Below, piece by piece: positions 1,004 to 28,752 of a stretch of DNA of 54,953 nucleotides. The translations under genes and the position numbers were made by a program. Numbering within the stretch: position 1 is the first letter of the stretch; each line of letters starts with the position of its first letter. Under the pieces are notes generated by a model. That model was not told the origin of the DNA and searched no databases. It saw only the letters and a program-made list of their open reading frames with translations. The stretch is taken from assembly GCA_048941605.1 (NCBI GenBank), contig JBHLNL010000007.1, forward strand, positions 1-54,953, written 5' to 3'. The stretch comes from Promethearchaeota archaeon. GTDB lineage: Archaea > Asgardarchaeota > Lokiarchaeia > Sigyniarchaeales > SOKP01.

Positions 1004-3064
1004 ATGGTGAATTTTTCAAATAATAAGTTCAATGATAAAAGGGAAATTCAAGGGTTTGCTAAAGATGAGATTATAAAAATTAAGGAAACTATTGCAAAGC
1101 TAAAATCTGAAGATATTGAGGGTACAAAGTTAAATGACTATTTAAGATCAAAACTTCACACTTCCCCTGAAATTCTTAATCAATATTCTAGCTATTTAAA
1201 AGATCTAGAAGTATTTGTATATGATTATTTATTATCAATTGATAATTTTAATTATTTCTATTTAAAGACTGAAATACTAAATGAATTACAGGTTATTTCA
1301 AATAATTTGCAAAATCTTAGCTCTAATACCAGAAATATAAGAAGAATAATAAAACACAACATATCATTAGAAGATTCCCTTGTGATAATAGAGGATCTTC
1401 TTAAAAAGAGTACTTCTCTTGGATCCAATATACAGCAATCAATTAAAGAAATTATCTCTGTTCATCAGGATTTTACAATGCTTTGGACAGAAATTAATAG
1501 GATTAAGAATTTGAATTTTAAATTAAATGATATACCTCCCACAATAGAAAAATGGGATGAAATTAAAGAATTAGTTACTTTTATTATAAGTCTAAATGAT
1601 GTTTTTCAGAATAAAAGGAAGAAAGATAAAAAAGAGAAGATTTTAACATTTCATTTTGAGGAGATTTATCAGTTCTTCCTTTCAAAAGATGAAAGTAGGA
1701 TAAAATTTTATTCTGATTTGATATATCTTTTATATTTAAACAAAATTTTTGAAATATATCAAGGAGAGGAATTTATTAATATCCTTGAAAGAAAAGAAGT
1801 CATACACAACCTGAAAAATTTTATACGTCCTCTGCTTAAACAATTAATTGAAGTAAAATTAGTAGATGTTTTAGCTGAAATTGATGATATTAATTCAAAA
1901 GAAAAAGATTTGAATATTAATTTAAAGACTTTAAATAATCAAAGAATTAGTGAATTTTTACCAAAAATTGTTGATTATTATATAGTAGCTCTAGAGAAGA
2001 AATTTCAGGAGAAAATACATGATGTAATTGAAGCGGAGCAATTCGAAGAAATTGCTAATTTTTATTATCAAAAAATCGATCATTTTTTATCTAAAGTTAA
2101 TGAGATCGAAGATTGGGTTCTAAATGTTGAGAATTTCCTAAATCCTTACGAAACTATTACCGTAGCATTGAGAAAAATATTTTCTAATGTATCCTCTGAA
2201 GTATTTCGTAGAAAAAATGAATATCTAACTTTTATTAAAACTGTTAAAGATGAAGAACTAAGAGTTGATATAAGAAAATTTGTCTCTAGTAAAATATCAG
2301 AGGTAAATGATTTGATTAGAGTATATGAGGATGAAGCATCTTTAATAATTAAAGAGGAATTCCCTCAACTCAAGAGAATTAGAGAAATTTTAAATGATTA
2401 TAACATTAAAATCCAGAAAATTAAAGATGAAGTATTTAAAAAATTAGATTCTGTAAAATCAAATGATGTCGATATATATCAAGTAATAAAATTTTGGGAA
2501 GATAGTTTAAATCGGAAAAAGCAACAATTAACTTTTCTTATCTCTCTTATTCTTAATAAATTGTTTAAGAGTTTTAAAGAATTAATTGAGAAAGAAGGAA
2601 TTTTATTTGCAACTATTACAGAGATCACTGAACAAACAGAAAATTTCGAGGGATTACCTCTTAATTTTGCATTATCATCATTTTTAGCAGAGAAACTAAC
2701 AGAAGAAGAATTGAAGGAGAGAATTTCTGAGATTAAGGCTAAAGTAAACCAATTGAATAATTCACTAGGTCTTTATCAAGTTGAAGTAGCAAAATTGGAG
2801 ACAATACTGGCAAATAGAGTTAAAGTAAGAAAAGGAATATCTAGTTCAGATGTTCAATGTACAGTTTGTCATAAATTTATTAATTTTGCTTCAGATAGAG
2901 TTATTACTTGCCCTTTTTGTGGAAGTACTTATCATTATTTATGTGTTGCGTTTTGGCTTTCTAAATATAACTCATGTCCAATGTGTCAAAACCATTTTCT
3001 TGAACCTCATTCAGAGCTATTTGAAACTGAAGAAGATCATGAATTAGATGATATTAAATATTGA
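1004..3064 (+). CDS. Large helical/coiled-coil protein with C-terminal C4HC3 RING finger (candidate E3 ligase)
   Basis: CTVC-x13-CPFC-x4-H-x2-C-x3-W-x6-CPMC at 2858-2986; ATG at 1004 preferred over the track's TTG at 902. Confidence 0.8.
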   Translation: MVNFSNNKFNDKREIQGFAKDEIIKIKETIAKLKSEDIEGTKLNDYLRSKLHTSPEILNQYSSYLKDLEVFVYDYLLSIDNFNYFYLKTEILNELQVISNNLQNLSSNTRNIRRIIKHNISLEDSLVIIEDLLKKSTSLGSNIQQSIKEIISVHQDFTMLWTEINRIKNLNFKLNDIPPTIEKWDEIKELVTFIISLNDVFQNKRKKDKKEKILTFHFEEIYQFFLSKDESRIKFYSDLIYLLYLNKIFEIYQGEEFINILERKEVIHNLKNFIRPLLKQLIEVKLVDVLAEIDDINSKEKDLNINLKTLNNQRISEFLPKIVDYYIVALEKKFQEKIHDVIEAEQFEEIANFYYQKIDHFLSKVNEIEDWVLNVENFLNPYETITVALRKIFSNVSSEVFRRKNEYLTFIKTVKDEELRVDIRKFVSSKISEVNDLIRVYEDEASLIIKEEFPQLKRIREILNDYNIKIQKIKDEVFKKLDSVKSNDVDIYQVIKFWEDSLNRKKQQLTFLISLILNKLFKSFKELIEKEGILFATITEITEQTENFEGLPLNFALSSFLAEKLTEEELKERISEIKAKVNQLNNSLGLYQVEVAKLETILANRVKVRKGISSSDVQCTVCHKFINFASDRVITCPFCGSTYHYLCVAFWLSKYNSCPMCQNHFLEPHSELFETEEDHELDDIKY

Positions 3065-3093
3065 TTCTTAAATATCTGTCTTCATTTTTTAGA

Positions 3094-3747
3094 TCATATC
3101 ACGGGAGGGGAGAGAAATATATTAAATGTCAAATATGTTCCAAAAATTATCATAAAAGCCCCGCAAATTATCAAAACATATTTATAAATTTTAGGATTTA
3201 AAGATTTACCACCAAAATATACAAAAATAGAAATTGGTATATACCACACGAAATCACCTAATTCATGTCCAATGAAAAATAATAAAAGTCCGAGAGGATT
3301 TCCAAAAGTTATATTATAATTTACCAAGAATCCCCATCCAACTAAAGCCCACCATAACTCCCAATACGGGTTTGATAGGCTCACTATAATGCCTCCAACA
3401 AAACTATTTCCTTTATAACCCTTTGAATCTTCTTGGATTAATCCTAAAGAAAAATCAGTTTTATAGGCATCTCGTATAACGAAAATCCCATATATTTCTA
3501 ACAAAATTCCTCCTACAACACCAACTATTGTTAAGAAGATAATATTTTGAAAAAACAATGATGCTCCTGCTAGCAATATGATTATTAAGGTAAATTCTAT
3601 TAATGCATGACCTAGTAAAATAAATACTCCTGCGAGATATCCCCTTTTTTGTTTAACAGATTTATATATGGTAAATGTTAATAAAGGTCCTGGTGATAAT
3701 GCACCTGATAAAGCTACGAGAAAGGACATCAACAAAATTTCAATCAT
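3094..3747 (-). CDS. LysE-family translocator
   Basis: ALSGALSPGP, LGHALIE and SLSNPYW motifs; multiple TM helices. Confidence 0.85.
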   Translation of the reverse strand: MIEILLMSFLVALSGALSPGPLLTFTIYKSVKQKRGYLAGVFILLGHALIEFTLIIILLAGASLFFQNIIFLTIVGVVGGILLEIYGIFVIRDAYKTDFSLGLIQEDSKGYKGNSFVGGIIVSLSNPYWELWWALVGWGFLVNYNITFGNPLGLLLFFIGHELGDFVWYIPISIFVYFGGKSLNPKIYKYVLIICGAFMIIFGTYLTFNIFLSPPVI

Positions 3748-4355: not shown

Positions 4356-5732
4356 ATGAAATTTAGCATTATTCAAAAAACTCCATTATTTAATACTTTT
4401 TCAGAAATTGGAAAAAGAATATTTCTACCAGATGGGATTTTCTATTGGTCTGGAAGAGCTAAAAATGAAGCTGAGTTAATTGGAACAATTGGAGCCGCTT
4501 ATGGTTTTGAGAAGGATTTTATTGAAGGAGGAGATTCTGATTGGTTGCCTTGTTATCTGAAAGAAATTGCAGAATATTCAAACTTAAATATTAATGAGAT
4601 CGTTCCTTATACCTCTATTGGTGGATTGAAGGCTACAAGGGAAATTTGGAAGGAATGGATAGTATACAAATCATTATATAACCTGAATGACGATTTATCT
4701 TCGAGATTAAACAAATATATAACAACTCCAATAATAACAGGGGGAGTTACTAACGGAATTTTTCAAGCTTGCTCAATATTTTTAGATCCAAGTGATTATA
4801 TTATAGTTCCAAATAAGAGATGGGGTAATTATGATAATATTATAAACAAATTCATTGGTGCAAAAATTAAATCTTTCGAATTTTTTAAAAATAGTAAGAT
4901 AAATTTTAATGGATTGGAGACTGCTATCAGAGAAATTGGTAAAAAACAAGAAAAGATTGTCATCCTTTTAAATTTTCCCAATAACCCGACCGGCTACGTC
5001 CCCACAGAAGAAGAGGGTTTTAAAATTGTTGAAACATTAAAAGAATGCCAAATAGCTCAAGAAAAACCAATTATTGTTTTAGCTGATGATGCGTATGAAC
5101 CATATATTTTCAAAGATAACGTGTTAAAGAGATCAATATTCTATGACTTACATCAATTGGATGAAAATGTCATTCCAATTAAATTAGATGGAATTACCAA
5201 GGAACTTTTAATTTATGGAGGGCGTATTGGTTTTCTCACATTAGGGTTAAAGCCAAAATGGATAAAAAACGATGAAGAATTGAAAATTTTAAAACAGGAA
5301 ATAAATAATAAATTGGAAGGTTTTGTTCGGGCAACAATTTCAAATTGTAATAGTTTCTACCAAGTAATTGTCCATAAGTTATTTCAGGAAAAGGGAATAG
5401 ATCAAATTATGCAATCAAGAAATGCTGTACTAAATTTACTCAAAAAAAGATATGAATGTATTAATTCCGAGTTAGAGAAAATAGATAATCCAAATATTTC
5501 AGTCGATCCTAATTCGGGAGGATTTTTTGTATTTTTAAATTTAAACTCTGATAAAATTAAAGCCACAGATTTCGCAGATCACTTATTAAAAGAATTCAAA
5601 GTAGGGATAATTCCCGTTGAGAAGTTAGACGAAAATGTAAATGGAATTCGAATTGCTTATTGCTCCGTAGATCTAAACAAAATACCGGAATTGATTAGAA
5701 GAATTAATTTAGCTTTAAATGAATTTTCTTAG
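4356..5732 (+). CDS. Class I/II PLP-dependent aminotransferase
   Basis: NFPNNPTGY, DDAYE, DGITK...GGRIG (PLP lysine) and GIRIAY; ATG at 4356. Confidence 0.9.
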   Translation: MKFSIIQKTPLFNTFSEIGKRIFLPDGIFYWSGRAKNEAELIGTIGAAYGFEKDFIEGGDSDWLPCYLKEIAEYSNLNINEIVPYTSIGGLKATREIWKEWIVYKSLYNLNDDLSSRLNKYITTPIITGGVTNGIFQACSIFLDPSDYIIVPNKRWGNYDNIINKFIGAKIKSFEFFKNSKINFNGLETAIREIGKKQEKIVILLNFPNNPTGYVPTEEEGFKIVETLKECQIAQEKPIIVLADDAYEPYIFKDNVLKRSIFYDLHQLDENVIPIKLDGITKELLIYGGRIGFLTLGLKPKWIKNDEELKILKQEINNKLEGFVRATISNCNSFYQVIVHKLFQEKGIDQIMQSRNAVLNLLKKRYECINSELEKIDNPNISVDPNSGGFFVFLNLNSDKIKATDFADHLLKEFKVGIIPVEKLDENVNGIRIAYCSVDLNKIPELIRRINLALNEFS

Positions 5733-5862
5733 CTTTTTTTCAACCTTTCTGAAGAGAATAATATATTAATATTATCTTAGTTTTTATCAAAATTTTTATA
5801 AACTTATTTTTATAATGTTATTAAAAAATAATTTAATTTATTCAAAAAAGTGAGAATAAAAC

Positions 5863-6870
5863 ATGAAACTTTTTCTTATTGATCAAGGAAATCTAAATGA
5901 AATAAATAAGCCAATCTTTTCCAGTGGAGATGTTTATCTTGTTGACGATGAAAAAACCATCTATGTCTGGATAGGTAATAAATGCTCTGTGGATGAGAAA
6001 ACCGCTGGTGCTGCTCAAGCAAGAACACTCGACCAGCAGCGCGGAGGTGCTGCCAAGATAATTACAGTAGATCAGGGGCAAGAATCAAAAGAATTTATGA
6101 AAGCAATTAACCTTATGGGTGCCATGAAAATTGTTGAAAAGAATTTTGCCAAAACATTACTTAAGGATGTCACAACTGGCGATTTTGCGCAATTCCATGA
6201 GTGGAAAAATGTATTGTATCGAGTCTCTTCAGAGGAATTTGAAGATATCAATGCTATGAAGATGATTCAGGTTCCTTTTAAAAAAGAATCATTAGCCTCA
6301 GAAGATTGTTTTGTTGCAGATTTAGGTAATAAAGTATATATTTGGCAAGGGAATGCTTGTACTGTGACTGAACGTGTAAGAGCAGGACAGTGGGCACGAG
6401 CTATAGACGCTGATAGAGCAGGATTGCAACAGGAAACTATTTTTGAAGAAGGTGATGATTCAGAATTTCTAGCGGCTATAACAAGAGGAGAAGATTATAA
6501 AGAATCTGATGCAGTACAATTAAAGGCAGAATCTGTATTAGAGGGTGAGGATGAAGATGACAGAGTAGCAAAAGCAATCCAACCAGAATTTAAATCAAAA
6601 GTAATGGAAGTTTCTCCAGATGAAGTAAAAGCAGATATTTCGGAAGTAAAAGCTTCTGGAGCAGCTCCAGGCATTCCAGGCAGAACAGATTCTTCCATTT
6701 TAACTGTAGAAAAATTAGAGGGTCGAAGGAAATGCCCAGAATGTGACAATGATAATCCCCTTATGATTCATGAAAGCGTTGATAAGTCTAATATAATTCT
6801 TGATTATCCACGAGTTTATGGAAAGAAATATAAATGTGGCCAATGTGGAGTAGAGTGGCGCGAAAAATAA
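5863..6870 (+). CDS. Two-domain gelsolin-like actin regulator with C-terminal Zn ribbon
   Basis: Two gelsolin repeats (SSGDVYLVD..IYVWIG..CSVDEK..QGQESKEF and SEDCFVAD..VYIWQG..TVTER..EGDDSEF), acidic linker, then CPEC...CGQC. Confidence 0.9.
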   Translation: MKLFLIDQGNLNEINKPIFSSGDVYLVDDEKTIYVWIGNKCSVDEKTAGAAQARTLDQQRGGAAKIITVDQGQESKEFMKAINLMGAMKIVEKNFAKTLLKDVTTGDFAQFHEWKNVLYRVSSEEFEDINAMKMIQVPFKKESLASEDCFVADLGNKVYIWQGNACTVTERVRAGQWARAIDADRAGLQQETIFEEGDDSEFLAAITRGEDYKESDAVQLKAESVLEGEDEDDRVAKAIQPEFKSKVMEVSPDEVKADISEVKASGAAPGIPGRTDSSILTVEKLEGRRKCPECDNDNPLMIHESVDKSNIILDYPRVYGKKYKCGQCGVEWREK

Positions 6871-6884
6871 AGTTATTCTAAATA

Positions 6885-6905
6885 TTTTATTTTTTCTCTT
6901 TTTTT
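6885..6905 (+). terminator. Oligo-T tract, probable intrinsic terminator
   Basis: T-rich run 15 nt after the gelsolin stop, between convergent genes. Confidence 0.5.
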
Positions 6906-6944
6906 AAAAGTCTAATATTAAAAAGAATTTATAACCTCAATTAA

Positions 6945-8045
6945 TTATGATTTCTGAAGATCTCTTCTCATCATTTTAATTTTCTTTTTAAGTTCAATTA
7001 TTTCTTCATTTTTTTGTTCGAGTTCTGATTCGAGTTTTACTTTTTCATCTTCAATTTGTTGGAGATCCCTTAAAAGCTGTTCTTCCTTTTGTTTTGTATC
7101 ACCTGTTTTGCTCTGTAATTCCTTCAACTGTTCTCTGAGACTCTTTATTTCCTGTGTTTTATCATCAAGTATATTTCGCATATTGGCGAGCTCTAATTCA
7201 AATTTACCTGCAAGGTTTCCAGCTTTTTTATGTGCGTCTTCTAATTTTTGTTCAAGATGATCTATTAAATCCTGATTAGATATGTTTTTTTGTTTCATTT
7301 CTTCAATTTCTACGACAAGTGTTTTATTTCGTTCTATTTTCTTTTCAAGATCCTTCTTTACTAAATTGAATGTTTCTAATTTTTGTTGAAGATCATGAAT
7401 TTTTTGATGGGCAGTTTTCAGATCATTTTCAATAGTAAAAATTGATTTTTCTTTTTCAGTTATAATTTCATCTTTTTTTTCTAAGAGAACTTCAAGTTTT
7501 TCAAATTTAGATTTTTGGATGGAATCTTTTTCAAGGTACTGAAGTTGTTCTTTTAATTCTTTAATCATTATTTCTTTTTCATCCAATTTATTAATTAAAT
7601 CCTGATTTTCAGTTTGTTTTGATTTAATTTGCTCAATTTCAGAAGTTAGTTCTTTAATTTTTTCGACTTGGTCATTGATAATTTTATTGAATTTTGATGA
7701 TTCTTCCTCAAATGTAGAATTTAGTTTTTCGATTTCATCATTTTTAGTTTCAATTGTTTCATATAATTTTTGAACGGCTTGATTTTGCATGGTAGTTTCT
7801 TCAGCTTGTTGAGTTATTTCTTTAATATTTTGCTCTAAATTCTGTATTTTTTGACTTTTTTCAGAAATCTCCCCGATTAATCTTTTATTTTCCTCCATAA
7901 AGTAGTCGAGTTGTTCTTTAAGCTCGTCTTCAGTTTTTAATATTTCTTCTTTCTCTTCTTTTTCTTCTACCCAACCGAGCGTCGAGAGTGCATCAACAAT
8001 TGATTTATCGTTATCTTCCTCATGACTTTCACGATCATCAGACAT
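6945..8045 (-). CDS. Long uninterrupted coiled-coil protein
   Basis: E/K/Q/L-rich heptads over about 330 aa, no Pro, no globular domain. Confidence 0.8.
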   Translation of the reverse strand: MSDDRESHEEDNDKSIVDALSTLGWVEEKEEKEEILKTEDELKEQLDYFMEENKRLIGEISEKSQKIQNLEQNIKEITQQAEETTMQNQAVQKLYETIETKNDEIEKLNSTFEEESSKFNKIINDQVEKIKELTSEIEQIKSKQTENQDLINKLDEKEIMIKELKEQLQYLEKDSIQKSKFEKLEVLLEKKDEIITEKEKSIFTIENDLKTAHQKIHDLQQKLETFNLVKKDLEKKIERNKTLVVEIEEMKQKNISNQDLIDHLEQKLEDAHKKAGNLAGKFELELANMRNILDDKTQEIKSLREQLKELQSKTGDTKQKEEQLLRDLQQIEDEKVKLESELEQKNEEIIELKKKIKMMRRDLQKS

Positions 8046-8080
8046 ATGTTTAAAATCACCATTTGATCTATTAAATTTTA

Positions 8081-8584
8081 TTATTTTTCAATTTTTAATT
8101 CTTCTATATTAAAAATATATCGTCTATCTAAGAAAAATTTTGTAATATATCCAATAGTAAGTGCGATTATAAAGCTAATTTCTAGCGGTGTATTTAGATA
8201 ATTTGTTAATAAAAATTGAATTCCAATATTTTCAATAGTTGTTATTATTGCAAAGCCGAAATATTTAAAGAATTCTATTGATGTTTCTTTTAATCCAGTG
8301 CCGGTTTTTTTAAAAACTATATATTTATCAAGAAAGAATTTAATAATATAGGTAATTCCTACTGCGAAAATGGAGCCAATTAATTCACGCATATTGAATG
8401 GTTCAACTGAACAATAAAATACATGAAAAAACTCAATTGTCCCAAAACTTTGACAGAAAACTGGAGCTATAACTAATTGGTTTAGTTTTTGAATTAAATA
8501 ATTCAGGCCAATCATTAAAGCCGCAAATAAAAAATAGAGCATCATTTGTCTTTTAATATCATTATTTTCAACCATATTTAACAC
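8081..8584 (-). CDS. GtrA-family membrane protein
   Basis: Duplicated KFFLDKY.VF / KFFLDRRY.F motif; EFFKYFGFA; four TM helices. Confidence 0.8.
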   Translation of the reverse strand: MLNMVENNDIKRQMMLYFLFAALMIGLNYLIQKLNQLVIAPVFCQSFGTIEFFHVFYCSVEPFNMRELIGSIFAVGITYIIKFFLDKYIVFKKTGTGLKETSIEFFKYFGFAIITTIENIGIQFLLTNYLNTPLEISFIIALTIGYITKFFLDRRYIFNIEELKIEK

Positions 8585-8587
8585 ATC

Positions 8588-8881
8588 TTATTCAATTATT
8601 AATTTTTCTCCACAATGATAGCAAAATTTCGCAACAGACTTTGTTATTACACCTTTACATCTCGGACAATATCTCAATTTTGAATTATCAATATCCTCCA
8701 AGAGTGAAAAATCAGTTTTTTTATTTTCAAATTTAGCACCTTGGGATTTAATAGAGCTAAAAGAAAAGGGTAAAAAGCAAATAATTGGGATAAAAAAAAA
8801 GAAATCAATAGTCAATGATAATACTAAGAAAATTATAAAAATCGAGATAAAAATTAAGTTTAAAACAAAATTTCGCTTCAT
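8588..8881 (-). CDS. Small membrane protein with C-terminal zinc ribbon
   Basis: N-terminal hydrophobic stretch; YCPRC...AKFCYHCG; ATG at 8881. Confidence 0.7.
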   Translation of the reverse strand: MKRNFVLNLIFISIFIIFLVLSLTIDFFFFIPIICFLPFSFSSIKSQGAKFENKKTDFSLLEDIDNSKLRYCPRCKGVITKSVAKFCYHCGEKLIIE

Positions 8882-20868: not shown

Positions 20869-22599
20869 ATGAAGATCGGGAAATATTGGATAAAAATTCC
20901 AAATATTAAATTCGCCTGCTACTCCTCAGTCATTTTAAATTCGATCTGTGGTTTCTTGGGTATTTTTTATCTATTCAGTTCTTCCTACTCGAGATTATGG
21001 AGTTTTTACGGAATTATTCTATTAATTACTATTTTTGGTAATCTAATTCTTATTTTTGTTAGTTCAAGAAAAAAAAATGGAGAAAATAGATTCACAAATA
21101 AAATGAATACTTTTAGTTATACTTATCTAACTTTTATCATTCTTGCTATGGTTTGTATGATGCTTGGTAATTTACTTGTTTCTGTAACTTATTCCAATCA
21201 ATTAATTGATAATTTATTATCATATGTTTTAATAGATTTCTTCTATTTTGGAATTTTAATTATTGGAATTATTTATGCTATTTTTGGAGTTAAAACATAC
21301 AATAAAATTAACTTGGGGGTTGATACTTATACGCTCAATATAAAAATCTCAAGAAGATTTGTCAAAGCTAAAAAAGTATTTAAAAAAATAGCAATAATCA
21401 TTTCAAGGGGAACCTTTATCATTGGTATTATATTTGGAATTGTAATTTTATTTGGCTCATTTGAAATCGTAACAACTTTTATCGCAATTGTTTCTGGCCA
21501 ATTCGGCATCTTCTTTTCTATTATATTTTTCGCAAATACAATTTTACTCTTAAAATTAAAGCATCATAGATGGAATAAAAGAAAATTCTATAGAACCGCA
21601 ATGTCTGGAATTTTTGTCTCATTATTATTATTAACTCCATTATTTTTAACCCATTATACTATTAATAATATAGAAAGAAATTTCTCAAGTATTTTTGGCC
21701 CAAATTGGAGAGAGGAAATACCCGCTGAAGCAAATAATTATTTTTTAGAAACTCCTTTTTCTTTATCAAGTTATTTTCTAGGTATACCACCTAAAGATTG
21801 TAGGATTGAAAAAAATGTTTTATTTTATAATGATGAAGGAATCCAGCTATATTTTGATGCATATATGCCCAAATCTAATATTAAAGGACTTCCTGGCGCA
21901 AATTCTACTATTATTAGGATCCATGGAGGTGCTTGGGTTTCTGGTGATAAAGGTTTGATGAATATGATGCAGATGAATAAATATTTCGCTGCTCAGGGTT
22001 ATATTGTTTTTGATATTCAATATGGAATTGCTGAAAATCCATTATATGCTTTAGATCCCTTAACACCTACTTATAAAAAAGGTAGCTTTAATATAGATGA
22101 TATGATACGGCATATTGGAATTTTTACGAACTACTTAACAAATCATTCAGAAGAATATGGAGCAAATTTAGATTCTGTATTTTTCAGTGGGGGTTCGGCA
22201 GGAGGTCATCTAAGTTGTGCTGCTGCTTTAGCTATAGCAAGCGGAGATTATACAGATATATTCAGTGCTAATTTAACCATAAAAGGTTTAGTACCATTCT
22301 ATCCCGCAAATGATCTAATGAATTTTTTTGGACTTAGTGGAAGCCTTGAGTTTAAAAATCCAGAAAACTTAATTGAAAGCGATAGTCCTCCCTGCCTCAT
22401 CTTTCAAGGTACTCATGATATAATTAATTATTTCGGTATATCTAAGGAGATTCAAAATACCTATTTCTCAAAAGGAAATGGAAATTGTGCGATTTTATGG
22501 ATGCCCTTTGGAGGACATGCCTCAGATATCTATTTCACCGGTTATTATAACCAAATTTTCTTATATTACATGGAGAGATTTTTGTATCTAAATCACTAA
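20869..22599 (+). CDS. Multi-pass membrane protein with C-terminal HSL-family alpha/beta hydrolase (lipase/esterase)
   Basis: About 7 TM helices, then HGGAW, GGSAGG, QGTHD and GGH catalytic motifs. Confidence 0.85.
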   Translation: MKIGKYWIKIPNIKFACYSSVILNSICGFLGIFYLFSSSYSRLWSFYGIILLITIFGNLILIFVSSRKKNGENRFTNKMNTFSYTYLTFIILAMVCMMLGNLLVSVTYSNQLIDNLLSYVLIDFFYFGILIIGIIYAIFGVKTYNKINLGVDTYTLNIKISRRFVKAKKVFKKIAIIISRGTFIIGIIFGIVILFGSFEIVTTFIAIVSGQFGIFFSIIFFANTILLLKLKHHRWNKRKFYRTAMSGIFVSLLLLTPLFLTHYTINNIERNFSSIFGPNWREEIPAEANNYFLETPFSLSSYFLGIPPKDCRIEKNVLFYNDEGIQLYFDAYMPKSNIKGLPGANSTIIRIHGGAWVSGDKGLMNMMQMNKYFAAQGYIVFDIQYGIAENPLYALDPLTPTYKKGSFNIDDMIRHIGIFTNYLTNHSEEYGANLDSVFFSGGSAGGHLSCAAALAIASGDYTDIFSANLTIKGLVPFYPANDLMNFFGLSGSLEFKNPENLIESDSPPCLIFQGTHDIINYFGISKEIQNTYFSKGNGNCAILWMPFGGHASDIYFTGYYNQIFLYYMERFLYLNH

Positions 22600-22936: not shown

Positions 22937-23869
22937 ATGAGCTATAGAGATAGATTACGTTCAACAAAAACAACTCCAGAAAGTGAAGTAAGCTGTAGTT
23001 CAGATGCTCAATGCTGTAGTAATCCTTGCATTGAATCCCGAGATGGGGATAATGTTTGCTTAAATTGTGGTATGATAATTGGAAGAAACTTGGTTGGAAA
23101 CGAAAGACGCGCTTATACAATTGAGGAAGTCAATAAAAGGCGCCGAACTGAACCTCGTTGGAGAGAATTTGGTCCACGTACAATGTTACCTGCCTCTAAA
23201 GTTGATTCAAAAGGAAGATTAATCAACGCAAAAGGTAAAACTCTCTTTTCGAGATTATCCAAGATTCAAAATTCACTTATCTCTTCAATTGAAAGAAATT
23301 TTTGGGAAGCTAAACCTAAGCTTAAGATGCTTACAAGTAAAATGAATATACCAGAATATATCAAGGAAACTGCATGGAAGATTTATTCTGTTGTTGCTAA
23401 GAAGAAACTTACAATGGGTAGATCAATAGATGGTTTTATTGCAGCTTCTTTATATGCTGCAATTCGAGTACATGAATTCCCACGATTACTTGAAGAAGTT
23501 TGTGAAGCTTCAATGACTCCAAGAAGAACTGTACACCGTTCTTTAGGCATGGTTGTTAAAGAAGTACTTCCTGAATTAAATTTGAAGTATAAGCCTATCA
23601 CAGCAGAGCAATTAGTTTTTAGATTCGGTAATGATTTAAGCTTACCGATGAATATTCAAAAGAATGCAGTGAATATGTTAGCAGAAGCATCCAAAAACGG
23701 ATTATTACGAACTGGTAAGGATCCAAAGGGTTTAGCCGCAAGTGTGATTTATATGGCAGCAAAAGCAGGAAACTGTCGGAAGACACAGGCAGAAGTATCT
23801 GAAGTTGCGAAAGTCACAGAGGTTACGCTACGCTCTCGATCTAAACAGATAAAAAGTAAACTTCAATAA
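22937..23869 (+). CDS. tfb: Transcription initiation factor IIB (TFB)
   Basis: VCLNCG ribbon, ERRAY B-reader, two cyclin repeats (MGRSIDGFIAASLY; GKDPKGLAASVIY; TQAEVSEVAKVTEVTLRSR). Confidence 0.95.
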   Translation: MSYRDRLRSTKTTPESEVSCSSDAQCCSNPCIESRDGDNVCLNCGMIIGRNLVGNERRAYTIEEVNKRRRTEPRWREFGPRTMLPASKVDSKGRLINAKGKTLFSRLSKIQNSLISSIERNFWEAKPKLKMLTSKMNIPEYIKETAWKIYSVVAKKKLTMGRSIDGFIAASLYAAIRVHEFPRLLEEVCEASMTPRRTVHRSLGMVVKEVLPELNLKYKPITAEQLVFRFGNDLSLPMNIQKNAVNMLAEASKNGLLRTGKDPKGLAASVIYMAAKAGNCRKTQAEVSEVAKVTEVTLRSRSKQIKSKLQ

Positions 23870-24044: not shown

Positions 24045-25259
24045 ATGGATTTGATTGAGATATTTTTAACAATATTAAGTTTAATTATTGCTTACCTATT
24101 AGGTGCGATACTACCAGCTTTTTTATTCGGCAAATTAAAAGGTATTGATGTAAGAGAAGAAGGAACAAAAAATCCTGGAACTGCAAATGCTTTCCATGTA
24201 TTAGGTCTTCCTTTTGCAATTCCAACGGCTCTATATGATACTTTGAAAGGATTGTTGGCAATTCTAATAGCGTTTAGTTTAGGAGTCAATCCAATTTTCA
24301 TGCAAATCTGTGGTATAGTTGCAATAGTAGGTCATGTTTTTCCATTTTATTTAAAATTTCGTGGAGGTGAAGGCAATGCTACAGCCACTGGATTATTACT
24401 CTATTATCTTGTGAATTATTTAACAGTCAGTTTTGAAATTTTTTATACTTTAACGATTTTACTAATCCTTGTAGTTATCTTTACTTATATCTCTAGAGCA
24501 GGCTCCCTTTTACCGGCTGTATTATTTCCCCTACTTGGATATTCTGTATTTATTACTTATCCAGCCAGTATTTTCAATGTATTCTTTGTAATCGTTTTAG
24601 CACATATTGCTACTATTGGAATGTCAAAAGTAATAAGAGAGAAGAAATTAGTAATTACTGATGAAGAATTTCTAGCACGTTGGTGGAGAGTAGCAATAAG
24701 ACCAGTTTCTCTCTTATTTTTAGTATTCTATTTCATTTCAAATGTAGTAGGTATTATTTTGATAGGTATTGTATGTTTATGCTTTATTGCTCTTGATGTT
24801 TTTCGATTTCTTTCTAAACAAACTCAAGAATTATTAACAGTTAAAGTTAAAGCAATTTTTCGAAAAGGGGAAGAAAAGAAATTCTCATCAATGACGATCT
24901 TTTTGATCTCAACCTTTATAGTTGTGTTATTATTTGGTCAACTTTCTCTAGAGATAGCGATAACAGCTTTAGTTTTTCTTACATTTGGAGATATCTATAG
25001 TAAAGTATTTGGATTAGCTTATGGACGTCATAAATTATTTGAACATAAAACTGTTGAAGGAACTTTAGCATACATTGGTTGTGTAATTACATGTGGGTAT
25101 TTTATTTATACAATAACAGGTATTTCATTACCTGTTCTTATAGTAGGCGGAATCGCAGCAACTTTTTCTGAATTTTTTCCATTAGGAATGAATGACAATT
25201 TCACTGTTCCAATAATAAGCGGGGCAGCAATGTTTGTAGCAGTTTTTTTTGGCTTATAA
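24045..25259 (+). CDS. PlsY-like glycerol-3-phosphate acyltransferase domain fused to a SEC59/DGK1/VTE5-family CTP-dependent lipid kinase domain
   Basis: N-half AYLLGAI, DVREEGTKNPGTANA, DTLKG, GHVFPFYLKFRGGEG; C-half FRKGE, LTFGDIYS, KTVEGT, NDNFTVP. Confidence 0.85.
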   Translation: MDLIEIFLTILSLIIAYLLGAILPAFLFGKLKGIDVREEGTKNPGTANAFHVLGLPFAIPTALYDTLKGLLAILIAFSLGVNPIFMQICGIVAIVGHVFPFYLKFRGGEGNATATGLLLYYLVNYLTVSFEIFYTLTILLILVVIFTYISRAGSLLPAVLFPLLGYSVFITYPASIFNVFFVIVLAHIATIGMSKVIREKKLVITDEEFLARWWRVAIRPVSLLFLVFYFISNVVGIILIGIVCLCFIALDVFRFLSKQTQELLTVKVKAIFRKGEEKKFSSMTIFLISTFIVVLLFGQLSLEIAITALVFLTFGDIYSKVFGLAYGRHKLFEHKTVEGTLAYIGCVITCGYFIYTITGISLPVLIVGGIAATFSEFFPLGMNDNFTVPIISGAAMFVAVFFGL

Positions 25260-25361: not shown

Positions 25362-26006
25362 TTGAAATCTATAAGGATAGCTAAATTAACGATAGCAAAG
25401 TGGCCTTTATCTTGTGTAATAGGAATTTTAATAATTTTAATTAATTATATTTCAATAATAATATCGATTGCTTTAGCGCCACCACCTTTCAGTCCTTTAA
25501 AGAATTATATGAGTAGTTTAGGAAACTCAACCTATAATCCTAATGGGGCAATTATTTATAATGGTTCGGTAATAGTCTCCGGATTTTTATTTTTATTTTT
25601 TTTTATTGGCTTATTTCAGTGGTATTCTGAGAGTAAAAGGGACAAAACCATATTAATTGCTACTCAAATAATAGGGATCTTATTAGCTATAATATTTACC
25701 CTGACAGGATTTTATTCTGAGGACTTTAGACCTCAACATGTTTTCTGGTCAATTATTGCAGGGATTTTTGGTTTTTTAGCTAATGTTTGTTTAGCGTATT
25801 ATTTACTAAGACAAGAAGAATCAATTAAGACTATTTCTTATTTTGTATTTGGATTTATGGGTTTTTATATTATATTTTTATTTATATTATCTCCCCAACA
25901 TGTTCTAACTGAATGGGTGGTGAGAACAGCAGGAGACATTAACTTTATATTAATGATTTTTAATCTTAAACATATATATCAAGTAAGGAATAAATTGAAA
26001 TTATAA
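25362..26006 (+). CDS. DUF998-like membrane protein
   Basis: FSPLKNYMSSLG, GAIIYN, GFYSED..H and EW; multi-TM. Confidence 0.65.
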   Translation: MKSIRIAKLTIAKWPLSCVIGILIILINYISIIISIALAPPPFSPLKNYMSSLGNSTYNPNGAIIYNGSVIVSGFLFLFFFIGLFQWYSESKRDKTILIATQIIGILLAIIFTLTGFYSEDFRPQHVFWSIIAGIFGFLANVCLAYYLLRQEESIKTISYFVFGFMGFYIIFLFILSPQHVLTEWVVRTAGDINFILMIFNLKHIYQVRNKLKL

Positions 26007-26065: not shown

Positions 26066-26698
26066 TTAATCTGTTATACGATATAATCTAATAGACATTA
26101 TTAATACCCAGGTAATTGGAACACTAAGTCCTAATCGTTGTATGAATCCATTGACTAAAGATATATCAATGAGTAGTGAAATTGGAGAATAGATGATCAA
26201 ATAAATTCCAATTAGGACAAAAAAGAACCACCAATATTTTTTCCAGTTGTGATCTCTCCATAGTGGATACAATGAAAGAATAATCGCAGCGGGCATAGTA
26301 ACCGAAGGTAATTTTATAAGGATATTATGTCCAATACCTGTAAATGTTAAGTTTCCACATCCTGAATCGCATGGAAACATCGGAAGGCTTAAAATACAAA
26401 TACCAGAGAGAATAAATAAAATCATACTGATTTTAGTTAAAAAATGCTTTTCAACACCTAGATAAAGCCCCACTCCAAAGAAAATCAAATAAAGTCCAAA
26501 TATAATAAAACCAAAAATATTCATATAGATATTTGTTGGAGCTTCAGTACTAGCCAGTTCACTAATAAATTGACTAATTGGATTATAACCTGGATAAAGA
26601 AAACCTAAAATTGTAAAAACTATAATATTAATTACCGGTCCTAAAATTCCAAAAATAGCTGACGTTTTCTGAAGTCGATTAATATGATCTATATCCAT
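26066..26698 (-). CDS. DUF998-family membrane protein
   Basis: PGYNPISQFISELA, FPCD..GHN and GFIQRL. Confidence 0.8.
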   Translation of the reverse strand: MDIDHINRLQKTSAIFGILGPVINIIVFTILGFLYPGYNPISQFISELASTEAPTNIYMNIFGFIIFGLYLIFFGVGLYLGVEKHFLTKISMILFILSGICILSLPMFPCDSGCGNLTFTGIGHNILIKLPSVTMPAAIILSLYPLWRDHNWKKYWWFFFVLIGIYLIIYSPISLLIDISLVNGFIQRLGLSVPITWVLIMSIRLYRITD

Positions 26699-26942: not shown

Positions 26943-27689
26943 ATGAGCTATATTGAAAAAAAGTATAGGCAAAAGATAAAAGAAACATTTGATGATCAAA
27001 AGGAATTAGAAAATGCCTTGTTAATTGAATTAAATCAAAAATCTGTGAAAAATGTAAATGAAATTGCTAATCTTTGTGCGAAATTTAACCATAATATTAA
27101 CTTGATTCTTAAAAAGTATTATCCTGAGATAAAAGAAATGAAGGATAAATTAGAAATTAAATCTATTCTAAAATTTTATTATGATTTGATTGACAAATTA
27201 ACAGATTTAGTCAGAAATATCGAAAACTATCGGAAAATCGATCCCGAATATTATAATCATTTAATTGAATTCATAGAGGATAAAGAAAGTTTAATAACTG
27301 GAAAATATCGAACTATTTGCGCTCAAGAATTAACTGCTTTTTATGATCCAACATCAAGAGAGAATTTGGAAAAGATATTGTTAGAAAAGTTAGAGATGAA
27401 AAGTCAGCAATATTTTACATTTGGCGCATTAGAAGAAGAAATCAAGAAAATTGCGAAAATAGTGGGTGCTAATTATGTATCCATAAGCACTATAAATGAA
27501 TTTTATAAAGAGGAATTTAAATTTGCTGAGTCAATTATTAATTATACTGTTTTGGAAGATAATAATCAAGATTTATTAGATAAAATTGGGGAAGAATTAA
27601 GAAGATATTTAGAATCTAAAAAATATCAAGCAATAGTAAAACCCGGAATGGTCATTACTAATGCTATTTTAATATCTGATAAGAGTTAA
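26943..27689 (+). CDS. Hypothetical soluble, mostly helical protein
   Basis: 248-aa ORF with coding-like composition; no recognised motif. Confidence 0.7.
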   Translation: MSYIEKKYRQKIKETFDDQKELENALLIELNQKSVKNVNEIANLCAKFNHNINLILKKYYPEIKEMKDKLEIKSILKFYYDLIDKLTDLVRNIENYRKIDPEYYNHLIEFIEDKESLITGKYRTICAQELTAFYDPTSRENLEKILLEKLEMKSQQYFTFGALEEEIKKIAKIVGANYVSISTINEFYKEEFKFAESIINYTVLEDNNQDLLDKIGEELRRYLESKKYQAIVKPGMVITNAILISDKS

Positions 27690-27750: not shown

Positions 27751-28752
27751 ATGAAGATTTTATATAGAATCCTAAAAGCATTAATAATTTCGTTTTTTAC
27801 CGTTTCAAGCTTTTTTTTCCTTTACTATTTCTTCTATTTTGATCAACATTATAGATGGGATGAGATTGAAATAAGCATTAATTGGATGGTTACAATTCTT
27901 TCTTTTATTATTTATTTTTATATTCTTTTTTTTTTGATTGATTATCGGGTTTTTAATGGCATGTTTTTACTTATAGTTTTTGTAGGGGCACCAGTTTGGA
28001 TTTTAATATATGTTCTAGAATTTTTAAAAATTGAATTGATTTTTTGGAATTGGCCTGCTATAAGAGATCTTGCCAGTATTTTATGTTTTTATATATTAGC
28101 TCCAGGACTATCATTAAATTTTATTAAATTCATTAAAAGCAACTCAAATCAAGATAAGAAAAGAAGAATATTTAGAAAGTATCGTATTCATGAAGGGTTT
28201 GTGGGTATTTTATTCATTATGATAGCTTTTTCTTTATGGATACTCAGACTTGTAATGATTCAAAACGAGATACTGAGAAGAGAATTAAGAATATTTTTGG
28301 CTTTAAACATGATTCCTTTAATTTTATTCTTATTCAGTGGTAGTTTCCTAACTTTTAGAGACAGAAGGGATATATTTAAGCTCAAATTTATTGAAAGAAG
28401 AAAGTTACAAGTTGAAGGCATAACCTCAACAGTTTTTAATCCAATCACTATAAATTCAATTAAATTTTTTAAATCACCAAAATATATTATTTTTCCATTA
28501 GGAATATTTTTTTTTAGCTTTGGCTTAAACATGTTTATCCATGGTACAGATTTTATAATAGCAGAATTATTCAATTTGAGCCATGAATCAATTGTTTTTC
28601 TAGGTTTTTTATTGTGTTTTATTTCTGGAGGAATGATTGGTATAGATTGGTTTCGTTTGTTTGGCAAAATTTATCCTAGTTTATACAAAGAAGTCGAGCA
28701 TAAAATTAATGAAATTAAAATGAATTTGAATCAAAAAATCAAGAAATTTTGA
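27751..28752 (+). CDS. Hypothetical multi-pass membrane protein
   Basis: About 8 hydrophobic segments; YRIHEGFVG motif. Confidence 0.7.
   Translation: MKILYRILKALIISFFTVSSFFFLYYFFYFDQHYRWDEIEISINWMVTILSFIIYFYILFFLIDYRVFNGMFLLIVFVGAPVWILIYVLEFLKIELIFWNWPAIRDLASILCFYILAPGLSLNFIKFIKSNSNQDKKRRIFRKYRIHEGFVGILFIMIAFSLWILRLVMIQNEILRRELRIFLALNMIPLILFLFSGSFLTFRDRRDIFKLKFIERRKLQVEGITSTVFNPITINSIKFFKSPKYIIFPLGIFFFSFGLNMFIHGTDFIIAELFNLSHESIVFLGFLLCFISGGMIGIDWFRLFGKIYPSLYKEVEHKINEIKMNLNQKIKKF

Follow-up and report, generated by a model that had tools for sequence, protein, structure and literature searches.

Among the closest described counterparts of the protein analyzed here is PlsY, the acyl-phosphate:glycerol-3-phosphate (G3P) acyltransferase of Aquifex aeolicus (aaPlsY; 5XJ5-5XJ9). 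According to Li 2017 (PMC5700162), its acyl-phosphate site is made by His92 and the Gly102-Gly103-x-Gly105 loop, Asn37 stabilizes the oxyanion and Thr41 hydrogen-bonds the acyl carbonyl, whereas the phosphate of G3P is clamped by Ser35, Arg45, Lys104 and Asn180, with His177 also lying in the G3P pocket. Exchange of the clamp residues for alanine cost more than 92% of the activity, R45K cost more than 90%, and S35T left 17% (PMC5700162). The same paper describes acyl-phosphate as unstable and raises the question of its passage between enzymes. Its known suppliers to PlsY are PlsX and FakA/FakB, which are soluble or peripheral and depend on adenosine triphosphate (ATP) or acyl carrier protein. 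Here we describe a gene in a 54,953-nucleotide stretch of DNA (contig JBHLNL010000007.1, positions 1 to 54,953; hereafter the window) from a Promethearchaeota archaeon of the Lokiarchaeia, whose product joins a PlsY-like half to a half resembling the cytidine triphosphate (CTP)-dependent lipid kinases. With a probability of about 0.5, we read it as an integral-membrane enzyme with two functions, from an old and distinct subfamily, which would combine a lipid kinase with an acyl-phosphate-type transferase and would not be a canonical acyl-phosphate:G3P acyltransferase.

'PlsY' is in print for Loki- and Thorarchaeota (Manoharan 2019; Coleman 2019), and the Lokiarchaeal homolog has repeatedly been put forward as a sign that bacterial-type ester lipids might be made by the closest archaeal relatives of eukaryotes. 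According to a 2022 review, what it does "remains to be elucidated"; in a 2026 EMBO Reports paper the Asgard plsY/plsC genes are described as 'most striking'. The gene in the window, which the initial annotation had singled out from the DNA alone, is this Lokiarchaeal 'PlsY' and not a new discovery.

The PlsY-like half and its acceptor pocket

The gene occupies positions 24045-25259 on the forward strand, on which all parts of it given below also lie. It encodes 404 amino acids plus a stop codon from an ATG start that agrees with the start of the homologs, the whole open reading frame (ORF) falls within the window, and about 14 transmembrane helices are predicted. An AlphaFold2 (AF2) model of the full-length fusion reached a mean predicted local distance difference test score (pLDDT) of 85.3 and a predicted TM-score (pTM) of 0.78.

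Residues 1-200 (24045-24644) form a PlsY-like half with seven transmembrane helices. Pfam PF02660 (G3P_acyltransf) matched residues 15-191 with E 1.7e-33 and 116.5 bits, far over its cut-off of 24.1, and the chain 5xj5_A of Aquifex PlsY matched residues 12-187 with E 1.5e-16. When the full-length AF2 model was searched with Foldseek, 5xj7, 5xj8, 5xj6 and 5xj5 were found at E 1.4e-4 to 1.7e-3 and TM(target) 0.61-0.68, the best being 5xj7 (E 1.4e-4, TM(target) 0.68); the seven-helix PlsY fold is present. The NCBIfam PlsY equivalog TIGR00023 scored 109.4 bits, under its cut-off of 137.2. By these scores the N-terminal half (N-half) classifies as a member of PlsY at the level of the family and not as the equivalog.

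We mapped the active-site residues by alignment to 5xj5_A, with the residue roles taken from Li 2017 (PMC5700162), and counted them in a close family of 117 relatives of at least 390 amino acids and in a wider fused clade of 66 representatives at 50% clustering plus the query, where fragments leave gaps. Motif 1, GTKNPGTANAFH, lies at residues 40-51 (24162-24197) and places Thr41 at aaPlsY Ser35, Asn43 at the oxyanion Asn37, Ala47 at Thr41, Asn48 at Asn42 and His51 at Arg45. His97 (24333-24335) corresponds to the phosphate-hole side chain His92. The motif 2 loop, FRGGEGNAT at residues 105-113 (24357-24383), contains GGEG at residues 107-110, in which the G107-G108-x-G110 backbone forms the phosphate hole and Glu109 takes the place of Lys104. 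The remnant of motif 3, HIATI at residues 187-191 (24603-24617), puts His187 at His177 and Thr190 at Asn180.

The two sides of the site differ in how they are kept. On the acyl-phosphate side, His97, Gly107, Gly108, Gly110 and Asn43 are invariant in all 117 close relatives, and in the wider fused clade His97 is found in 61 of 63 sequences, Gly107 in 61 of 64 and Asn43 in 39 of 55. Positions R37, D65, K68 and P100 are likewise shared with PlsY. On the G3P side, the S35/R45/K104/N180 clamp has become T/H/E/T in the query and T/(K,R)/Q/(T,S) in the close family. The Ser35 position is Thr in 101 close relatives and Asp in 11; that of Arg45 is Lys in 74, Arg in 38, Thr in three and His in two; that of Lys104 is Gln in 106 and Glu in 11; and that of Asn180 is Thr in 58, Ser in 37 and Ile in 12. 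His is retained at the His177 position in 113 of the 117. The wider fused clade is more variable still at position 41 (Thr 14, Asp 13, Ser 12, and also Asn), position 51 (Arg 16, His 13, Lys nine, Gln four, Ala three) and position 109 (Gln 24, Arg 12, Lys 11), and position 187, with Phe in 20, Tyr in 19 and His in six, is unconstrained. Judged from these alignments, the PlsY site is intact on its acyl-phosphate side and altered on its G3P side.

The initial annotation had read the three motifs as altered relative to PlsY, and all three strings stand where it read them, at residues 40-51, 107-110 and 187-191. The rewiring is real and family-wide at the Lys104 and Asn180 positions, but two of the exact substitutions are peculiar to the query copy: position 51 is His in only two of the 117 close relatives, and position 109 is Glu in 11 of them, the other 106 having Gln. 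Its remark that the cationic phosphate-binding residues had been lost is borne out only in part, as the Arg45 position is Lys or Arg in 112 of the 117 and Lys104 is kept or replaced by Arg in many fused proteins. Its suggestion of an acceptor other than G3P is borne out to the extent that clamp positions substituted throughout the close family and variable in the wider clade fit a non-canonical acceptor. A decayed PlsY half, which it had named as the finding that would speak against it, was not seen: the five residues of the acyl-phosphate side are present in 117 of 117.

The lipid-kinase-like half

The two halves are joined by a basic linker, EKKLVITD (residues 199-206, 24639-24662), predicted to be cytoplasmic from the sequence and the topology of the model. 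The C-terminal half (C-half; residues 201-404, 24645-25256) was assigned a CdsA/CarS-like fold. Modeled alone by AF2 from 52 sequences, it gave a pLDDT of 94.3 and a pTM of 0.89. A VIA-align wide search of 48,161 chains ranked CdsA (4q2e_A; Z 9.3, 177 residues aligned) first and CarS (5guf_A; Z 7.9, root-mean-square deviation 2.8 Å over 102 residues, 19% identity) second, Z values that are moderate and can be reached by helical bundles through their arrangement alone. Foldseek with the C-half alone returned nothing at E <= 0.001, its first rank being CdsA at E 0.43, and with the whole model it returned PlsY only and no match to the C-half. Scanned alone, the C-half had PF01148 (CTP_transf_1) as its sole Pfam match, with E 7.3e-4 and 19.9 bits where 24 are required; in a set of 52 family members, 12 matched this profile at E <= 0.01, the best (P0190) with 24.3 bits. 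PF01864 matched one of the 52 (E 0.0087). No PDB chain was found at E <= 10 with the sequence profile of the C-half. The fold is assigned because the structural ranking and the weak profile matches agree.

Within the CTP-transferase superfamily, the C-half appears to belong to the kinase-type branch. We place it there because an hhalign comparison aligned it with a dolichol-kinase-like paralog from the same genome (E 1.5e-4, probability 52%, over the GD...G...GxHK...KxxEG...E...DN core) but not with the CarS of that genome (probability 0.7%), and because the PF01148 match covers profile positions 64-209 of 264 and so ends before the C-terminal region, where the same-genome CarS matches (profile 170-231). 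The NCBIfam scan gave no CdsA, CarS or DUF92 model at E <= 10, the sole row being a chance-level CoxB, and PF01940 (DUF92/VTE6/TMEM19) matched none of the 52 members at E <= 0.01 nor the query at E <= 10. The kinase-type assignment of the initial annotation, which had set a CdsA-type cytidylyltransferase and an inactive DUF92-like domain against it, is thus not contradicted by the Pfam, NCBIfam and hhalign searches.

The conserved segments of the C-half agree with what we take to be the motif set of such kinases, GD...G...G.K / K(T/S)xEG / E...DDN..P. The domain starts with an Arg pair in WWRVAIRP (residues 213-220, 24681-24704; W213, W214, R215, R219 and P220 invariant), followed by a conserved cytoplasmic loop, FRKGEEKKFSSMT (residues 272-284, 24858-24896; K274, E276, S281, M283 and T284 invariant). 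The core nucleotide-site motif of the CTP-transferase superfamily is FGDIYSKVFGLAYGRHKLFEHKTVEG (residues 314-339, 24984-25061; D316, G323, K335, E338 and G339 invariant), which holds the GD noted initially (residues 315-316) and most of its KTVEGT (335-340). CdsA-type enzymes carry a C-terminal signature of the His-Gly-Gly/Asp-Arg-x-Asp type. In its place the C-half has an E...(D/N)DN..VP motif, EFFPLGMNDNFTVP (residues 376-389, 25170-25211), with the string DNFTVP at 384-389 and with E376, D384 and N385 invariant or nearly so, stand-alone relatives included. D316, G323, K335, E338, G339, E376, D384 and N385 are (near-)invariant even in stand-alone relatives of about 30% identity, and such invariant polar residues argue for an active site.

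The C-half is alike in several respects to the CTP-dependent lipid kinases (Sec59/DOLK, VTE5, FOLK/PfPolK, Dgk1). It is a multi-transmembrane domain of similar size, and it matches PF01148 weakly over the same profile region as the dolichol-kinase-like paralog of its own genome. Asp177 is reported to be essential in yeast Dgk1, and a basic clamp of Arg, Lys and His has been modeled in PfPolK; by analogy, D316 may be the equivalent of Asp177, and R215/R219 are a candidate phosphate clamp at the N-terminal end of the domain. Databases use the same names: NCBI labels a Promethearchaeota C-half fragment 'diacylglycerol/polyprenol kinase family protein', and JGI labels one stand-alone relative 'dolichol kinase'. 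Unlike these kinases, the C-half falls below the Pfam cut-off and is fused to a PlsY-like domain, and its substrate could be a carboxylate, which would be unprecedented.

Distribution of the fusion and its genomic setting

A word-indexed search with a limit of E <= 1e-3 yielded 349 relatives. The best 120 of these share 57-100% identity with the query, are nearly all about 400 amino acids long and cover both halves, so that the joining of a PlsY-like and a kinase-like half in one ORF, read initially from the single sequence, is a conserved feature. Those with names are called 'glycerol-3-phosphate acyltransferase', from Asgard metagenome-assembled genomes (MAGs), a label that describes the PlsY half only. 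In a scan of 185,579 species genomes, 23 loci were obtained, of which 22 are Asgard loci with a full-length gene, closed chromosomes included; the remaining one is a PlsY from a cyanobacterial relative that matches residues 14-119 only. Conservation among the 117 close relatives extends over the whole protein. The C-half, with a mean column identity of 72% across the 22 sequences from the window and the loci, is slightly better conserved than the N-half (65% in the same set), and both halves are strongly constrained.

A survey of 400 genomes from the same GTDB phylum gave full-length matches (query 1-400) that, among those listed, all fall in the family of the window (f1), where at least 77 of 134 genomes match; the counts are lower bounds, with at most four first-look candidates scored per genome, and 19 genomes of the same genus 'without a match' do not count as absences. 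In other families of the phylum, the listed matches extend over the N-half only and lie in ORFs of roughly 200-280 amino acids. No kinase-like ORF was seen within 3 kb of the stand-alone gene in 10 loci of other Asgard families.

Searched against 1.84 billion representatives, the C-half profile found 3758 proteins at E <= 1e-3, 109 of them at E <= 1e-30. The best 150 of the 3758 comprise 65 fusions in the N-C order, one in the reversed order (P0250, with the kinase-like domain at 31-206 and PF02660 at 226-390) and 84 proteins with the C-type domain only, many of which are stand-alone proteins of about 190-200 amino acids and others fragments. The two domain types have therefore been joined at least twice, in both orders. 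Named relatives of the C-half come from a Woesearchaeota archaeon, an Aminicenantia bacterium and a Spirochaetales bacterium, and named members of fused clusters from Actinomycetota and Clostridiaceae MAGs. The only split form seen is a Clostridiaceae pair of consecutive accessions, placed in the 90% cluster of a 404-aa fusion, which may be a frameshift.

Three bacterial genomes with the fusion were checked, one Actinomycetota (Ca. Subteraquimicrobium) and two Aminicenantia, and all three also hold a canonical PlsY (175-189 bits on PF02660). The bacterial fused PlsY-type domain is thus a paralog kept beside the housekeeping enzyme. A third Aminicenantes genome (G403) had a weak C-type match only and no clear fusion. 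The initial annotation had presented the fusion as an archaeal protein; with the same fusion in Actinomycetota, Aminicenantia and Clostridiaceae, it is not specific to archaea, the taxonomic range of the fused clade resting on a few named cluster members and the three bacterial genomes. In the two Aminicenantia genomes (L053:2501-7597 of G401; L054) the fusion lies immediately upstream of gap-pgk-tpi-secG on the same strand, a position uninformative on function.

A quick maximum-likelihood tree was computed from 127 PlsY-type domains; its canonical sample is biased toward word-sharing matches, and several rows were dropped. A branch with a Shimodaira-Hasegawa-like approximate likelihood ratio (SH-aLRT) support of 99 separates 56 fused and 15 stand-alone non-canonical domains from 45 canonical and 11 Asgard stand-alone PlsYs, and the stand-alone non-canonical group nests among the fusions. 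The 11 Asgard stand-alone ORFs come from the 10 loci of other families. All five canonical G3P-pocket residues are present in seven of them, with motifs GSGN...R, GGK and H-R/K-x-N-I (found among L031-L034 and L037-L040); of the rest, one has them in part and the other three, all of one family, have diverged. In that divergent family (L035, L036) the loop reads GGQG or GGNG and there is no H..N motif. By these motifs, 'Asgard PlsY' is at least two different things. As for novelty, both domains belong to known superfamilies. The accessible parts of the literature contained no mention of a fused second domain or of altered G3P residues, though the architecture may be shown in the supplements (figures, trees) of Manoharan 2019 and of Coleman 2019; a search for PlsY together with 'dolichol kinase' returned no publication. 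What appears to be undescribed is the fused clade, the remodeling of its acceptor pocket and the difference between it and the canonical stand-alone PlsYs of other Asgard lineages.

Several copies of the fusion can occur in one genome. One locus (L041; G270:C6:54189-64999), in a genome of the same family as that of the window, carries a cluster of four full fusions, in ORFs 1998-3227, 4936-6207, 6310-7524 and 7606-8811, all on the reverse strand, with Gln, Lys, Lys and Arg at the Lys104 position, and many other genomes of genus g12 have two to four fusion matches each. Such multiple copies suggest paralogs with diverging specificity.

The genome of the window is 94.8% complete, and the fusion is its only PF02660 gene. 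Profile searches of it found no PlsX (PF02504) and no DegV/FakB (PF02645). PlsC-type acyltransferase domains are present: a 568-aa open frame on contig C184 (L027/L028) has two tandem PF01553 domains (105.7 and 95.3 bits), and a third PlsC-like gene, of 240 amino acids, lies on contig C150. CarS, the CDP-archaeol synthase (CDP, cytidine diphosphate), is encoded as well (PF01864, E 3.8e-36; L024:1294-2064, reverse strand), and there are two further dolichol-kinase-like genes, one of 384 amino acids with a long N-terminal extension (L026:877-2031, forward) and one cut by a contig end (L025:25-474, forward). Searches for GpsA (PF01210) and the glycerol-1-phosphate (G1P) dehydrogenase (PF13685) gave weak generic matches only, which do not discriminate between the two glycerol phosphates.

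The G+C content of the window is about 26-34%. A TFIIB/TFB gene (22937-23869, PF00382) adjoins the fusion gene and, with the 22 Asgard loci among the 23 related ones, marks the host as an Asgard archaeon; a prolyl-tRNA synthetase gene lies further downstream. Further upstream, 20869-22599 (forward) encodes a membrane-anchored esterase of 576 amino acids, with a multi-transmembrane N-terminal part and a C-terminal esterase domain (BD-FAE, E 9e-19; Abhydrolase_3). In 11 of the 22 Asgard loci a homolog of it precedes the fusion, and in three of these (L018, L019, L020) the two genes are directly adjacent, with no intervening TFB. It could be a source of free fatty acid, or else inherited synteny. 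Two convergent genes for DUF998 membrane proteins follow directly downstream (25362-26006, forward, E 1.4e-14; 26066-26698, reverse, E 1.6e-22), a pair present near the fusion in only five of 22 related loci. Beyond them, a 248-aa protein with no Pfam match (26943-27689, forward) is kept beside the fusion in 20 of the 22 loci, and a 333-aa multi-transmembrane protein, also with no Pfam match (27751-28752, forward), is present in six.

Proposed mechanism and alternatives

In the topology derived from the model, with its helices taken as about 14 transmembrane segments, the proposed inner loops hold 19 Lys/Arg and the outer loops none. On the K/R-rich side lie the linker, the three polar loops of the kinase-like half and, in the PlsY-like half, motif 1 and the phosphate-hole loop. 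Because all 19 loop Lys/Arg lie on the side that holds the loops of both sites, both polar sites are predicted to face the cytoplasm, as in PlsY. A predicted complex of the N-half with the C-half scored 0.20 and 0.14 against a mark of 0.32, in a run made without controls, and we draw no conclusion from it.

As a bifunctional enzyme, the protein would use its kinase-like half and CTP to phosphorylate a membrane lipid, and in its PlsY-like half a lipid phosphate would take part in a substrate-assisted transfer of the PlsY type, with the acceptor bound otherwise than PlsY binds G3P. We favor a PlsY-type acyl transfer because the conserved parts are the phosphate hole, its His and the Asn whose only known role is to stabilize a tetrahedral oxyanion. 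The reversed-order fusion and the separate clade support a functional coupling of the two domains. The channeling, the order of the two steps and the substrates proposed in the initial annotation are, like those given below, hypothetical. In the version that we prefer, though as a whole only tentatively, the kinase-like half would use CTP to turn a free fatty acid into the labile acyl-phosphate on the spot and hand it directly to the PlsY-like half, thereby replacing PlsX or FakAB. This version is favored since acyl-phosphate is labile, the genome searches turned up neither PlsX nor FakB, and the fused partner resembles a nucleotide-dependent lipid phosphotransferase. The kinase-like half would then be an acyl-phosphate maker beside a PlsY-type site, as PlsX and FakA/FakB are to PlsY, although it has no homology to them. 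A further step, that the protein takes fatty acid to ester on its own, as a self-contained route without PlsX or FakAB, in which a CTP-dependent fatty-acid kinase channels acyl-phosphate to the remodeled PlsY site and the acceptor is G1P, glycerol or an archaeal ether lipid, strikes us as doubtful.

Several observations weigh against the bifunctional reading. We know of no member of the CTP-dependent lipid-kinase family that phosphorylates a carboxylate. The position of aaPlsY Thr41, whose side chain contacts the acyl carbonyl, is Ala in the query and in 26 of the 117 close relatives. At two Aminicenantia loci (L046, L047) no kinase-like ORF was found within 4 kb of a stand-alone PlsY-like gene, so the N-domain type can exist unfused, and the structural Z values of the C-half are, as said, moderate. 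The single cultured Lokiarchaeote is described in reviews as having isoprenoid archaeal lipids only. Finally, the two further dolichol-kinase-like paralogs in the genome make a polyprenol an equally natural substrate.

The main alternative is an isoprenoid-alcohol kinase with no acyl chemistry. Here the C-half would phosphorylate a polyprenol, dolichol, geranylgeraniol or archaeol-type alcohol with CTP, and the PlsY-like half would bind or pass on the isoprenoid phosphate, or serve to anchor or regulate the kinase. The characterized relatives of the C-half, as far as their descriptions go, all act on lipid alcohols, the 'diacylglycerol/polyprenol kinase' and 'dolichol kinase' labels point the same way, the C-half is the better conserved of the two, and the G3P pocket and the Thr41 position are variable. 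We regard it as rather unlikely: the oxyanion Asn43 is sensible only for an attack on a carbonyl, yet it is kept in every close relative and in 39 of 55 sequences of the wider clade, and a mere scaffold would not be expected to hold His97 and the GGxG loop invariant. The two stand-alone dolichol-kinase-like genes cut the other way as well, as the genome already has them.

Less likely are the two readings that take one half or the other at its canonical value. If the database annotation were right, the N-half would be a working G3P or G1P acyltransferase and the fused kinase would act on its product or on a neighboring lipid, for example from mono- or diacylglycerol to the level of phosphatidate. 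The high PF02660 score agrees with this, as do the His187 of 113 and the basic residue at the Arg45 position of 112 close relatives, the residual activity of S35T in aaPlsY, the PlsC-type domains of the genome and the fusion being the sole PlsY-family gene there; bacterial PlsY also takes both G1P and G3P (PMC13400652). We nevertheless consider it unlikely, given that the equivalog cut-off is missed, that the Lys104 position is Gln or Glu in 117 of 117 close relatives and that of Asn180 Thr, Ser or Ile, when alanine mutants of the clamp in aaPlsY lose more than 92% of the activity and R45K more than 90%, and that neither the His177 position nor the clamp is under constraint in the fused clade as a whole. 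The fused clade also stands apart from canonical PlsY, the three bacterial genomes checked keep a canonical PlsY besides the fusion, and no source of acyl-phosphate (PlsX, DegV) was found in the genome.

The remaining reading makes the C-half a CdsA/CarS-like cytidylyltransferase that produces a CDP- or CMP-lipid (CMP, cytidine monophosphate), such as a CDP-alcohol from the product of the PlsY-like half or an acyl-CMP donor. CdsA (CDP-diacylglycerol synthase, 4Q2E) and CarS (5GUF), both solved cytidylyltransferases, are indeed its best structural matches, and an ESM Atlas neighbor cluster was auto-named 'putative phosphatidate cytidylyltransferase' (score 0.89), which we treat as a lead only. 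At the level of sequence, however, its PF01148 match stops at profile position 209 of 264, before the region matched by the CarS of its own genome, no NCBIfam CdsA or CarS model reached E <= 10, the hhalign probability was 0.7% with CarS and 52% (E 1.5e-4) with the dolichol-kinase-like paralog, and the protein ends in E...NDNFTVP and not in a CdsA-type signature. A cytidylyltransferase is thus very improbable.

The sole 'PlsY' gene of this archaeon, with its remodeled transferase half and its fused kinase-like half, probably does not perform the bacterial lipid step for which it is annotated. A two-domain clade with an unconserved G3P pocket, its coexistence with a true PlsY in bacteria and the canonical stand-alone PlsYs of other Asgard archaea change what Lokiarchaeal PlsY can be evidence for, and two kinds of Asgard 'PlsY' can now be told apart. 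The result also yields a testable hypothesis of a new lipid-activating reaction. If the self-contained route were true, a CTP-dependent, membrane-embedded fatty-acid kinase would add a new activity to the dolichol-kinase superfamily, the membrane-anchored esterase often encoded just upstream would fit as a source of fatty acid, and Lokiarchaeia, together with some anaerobic bacteria, would have a means of salvaging fatty acids into hybrid or ester lipids.

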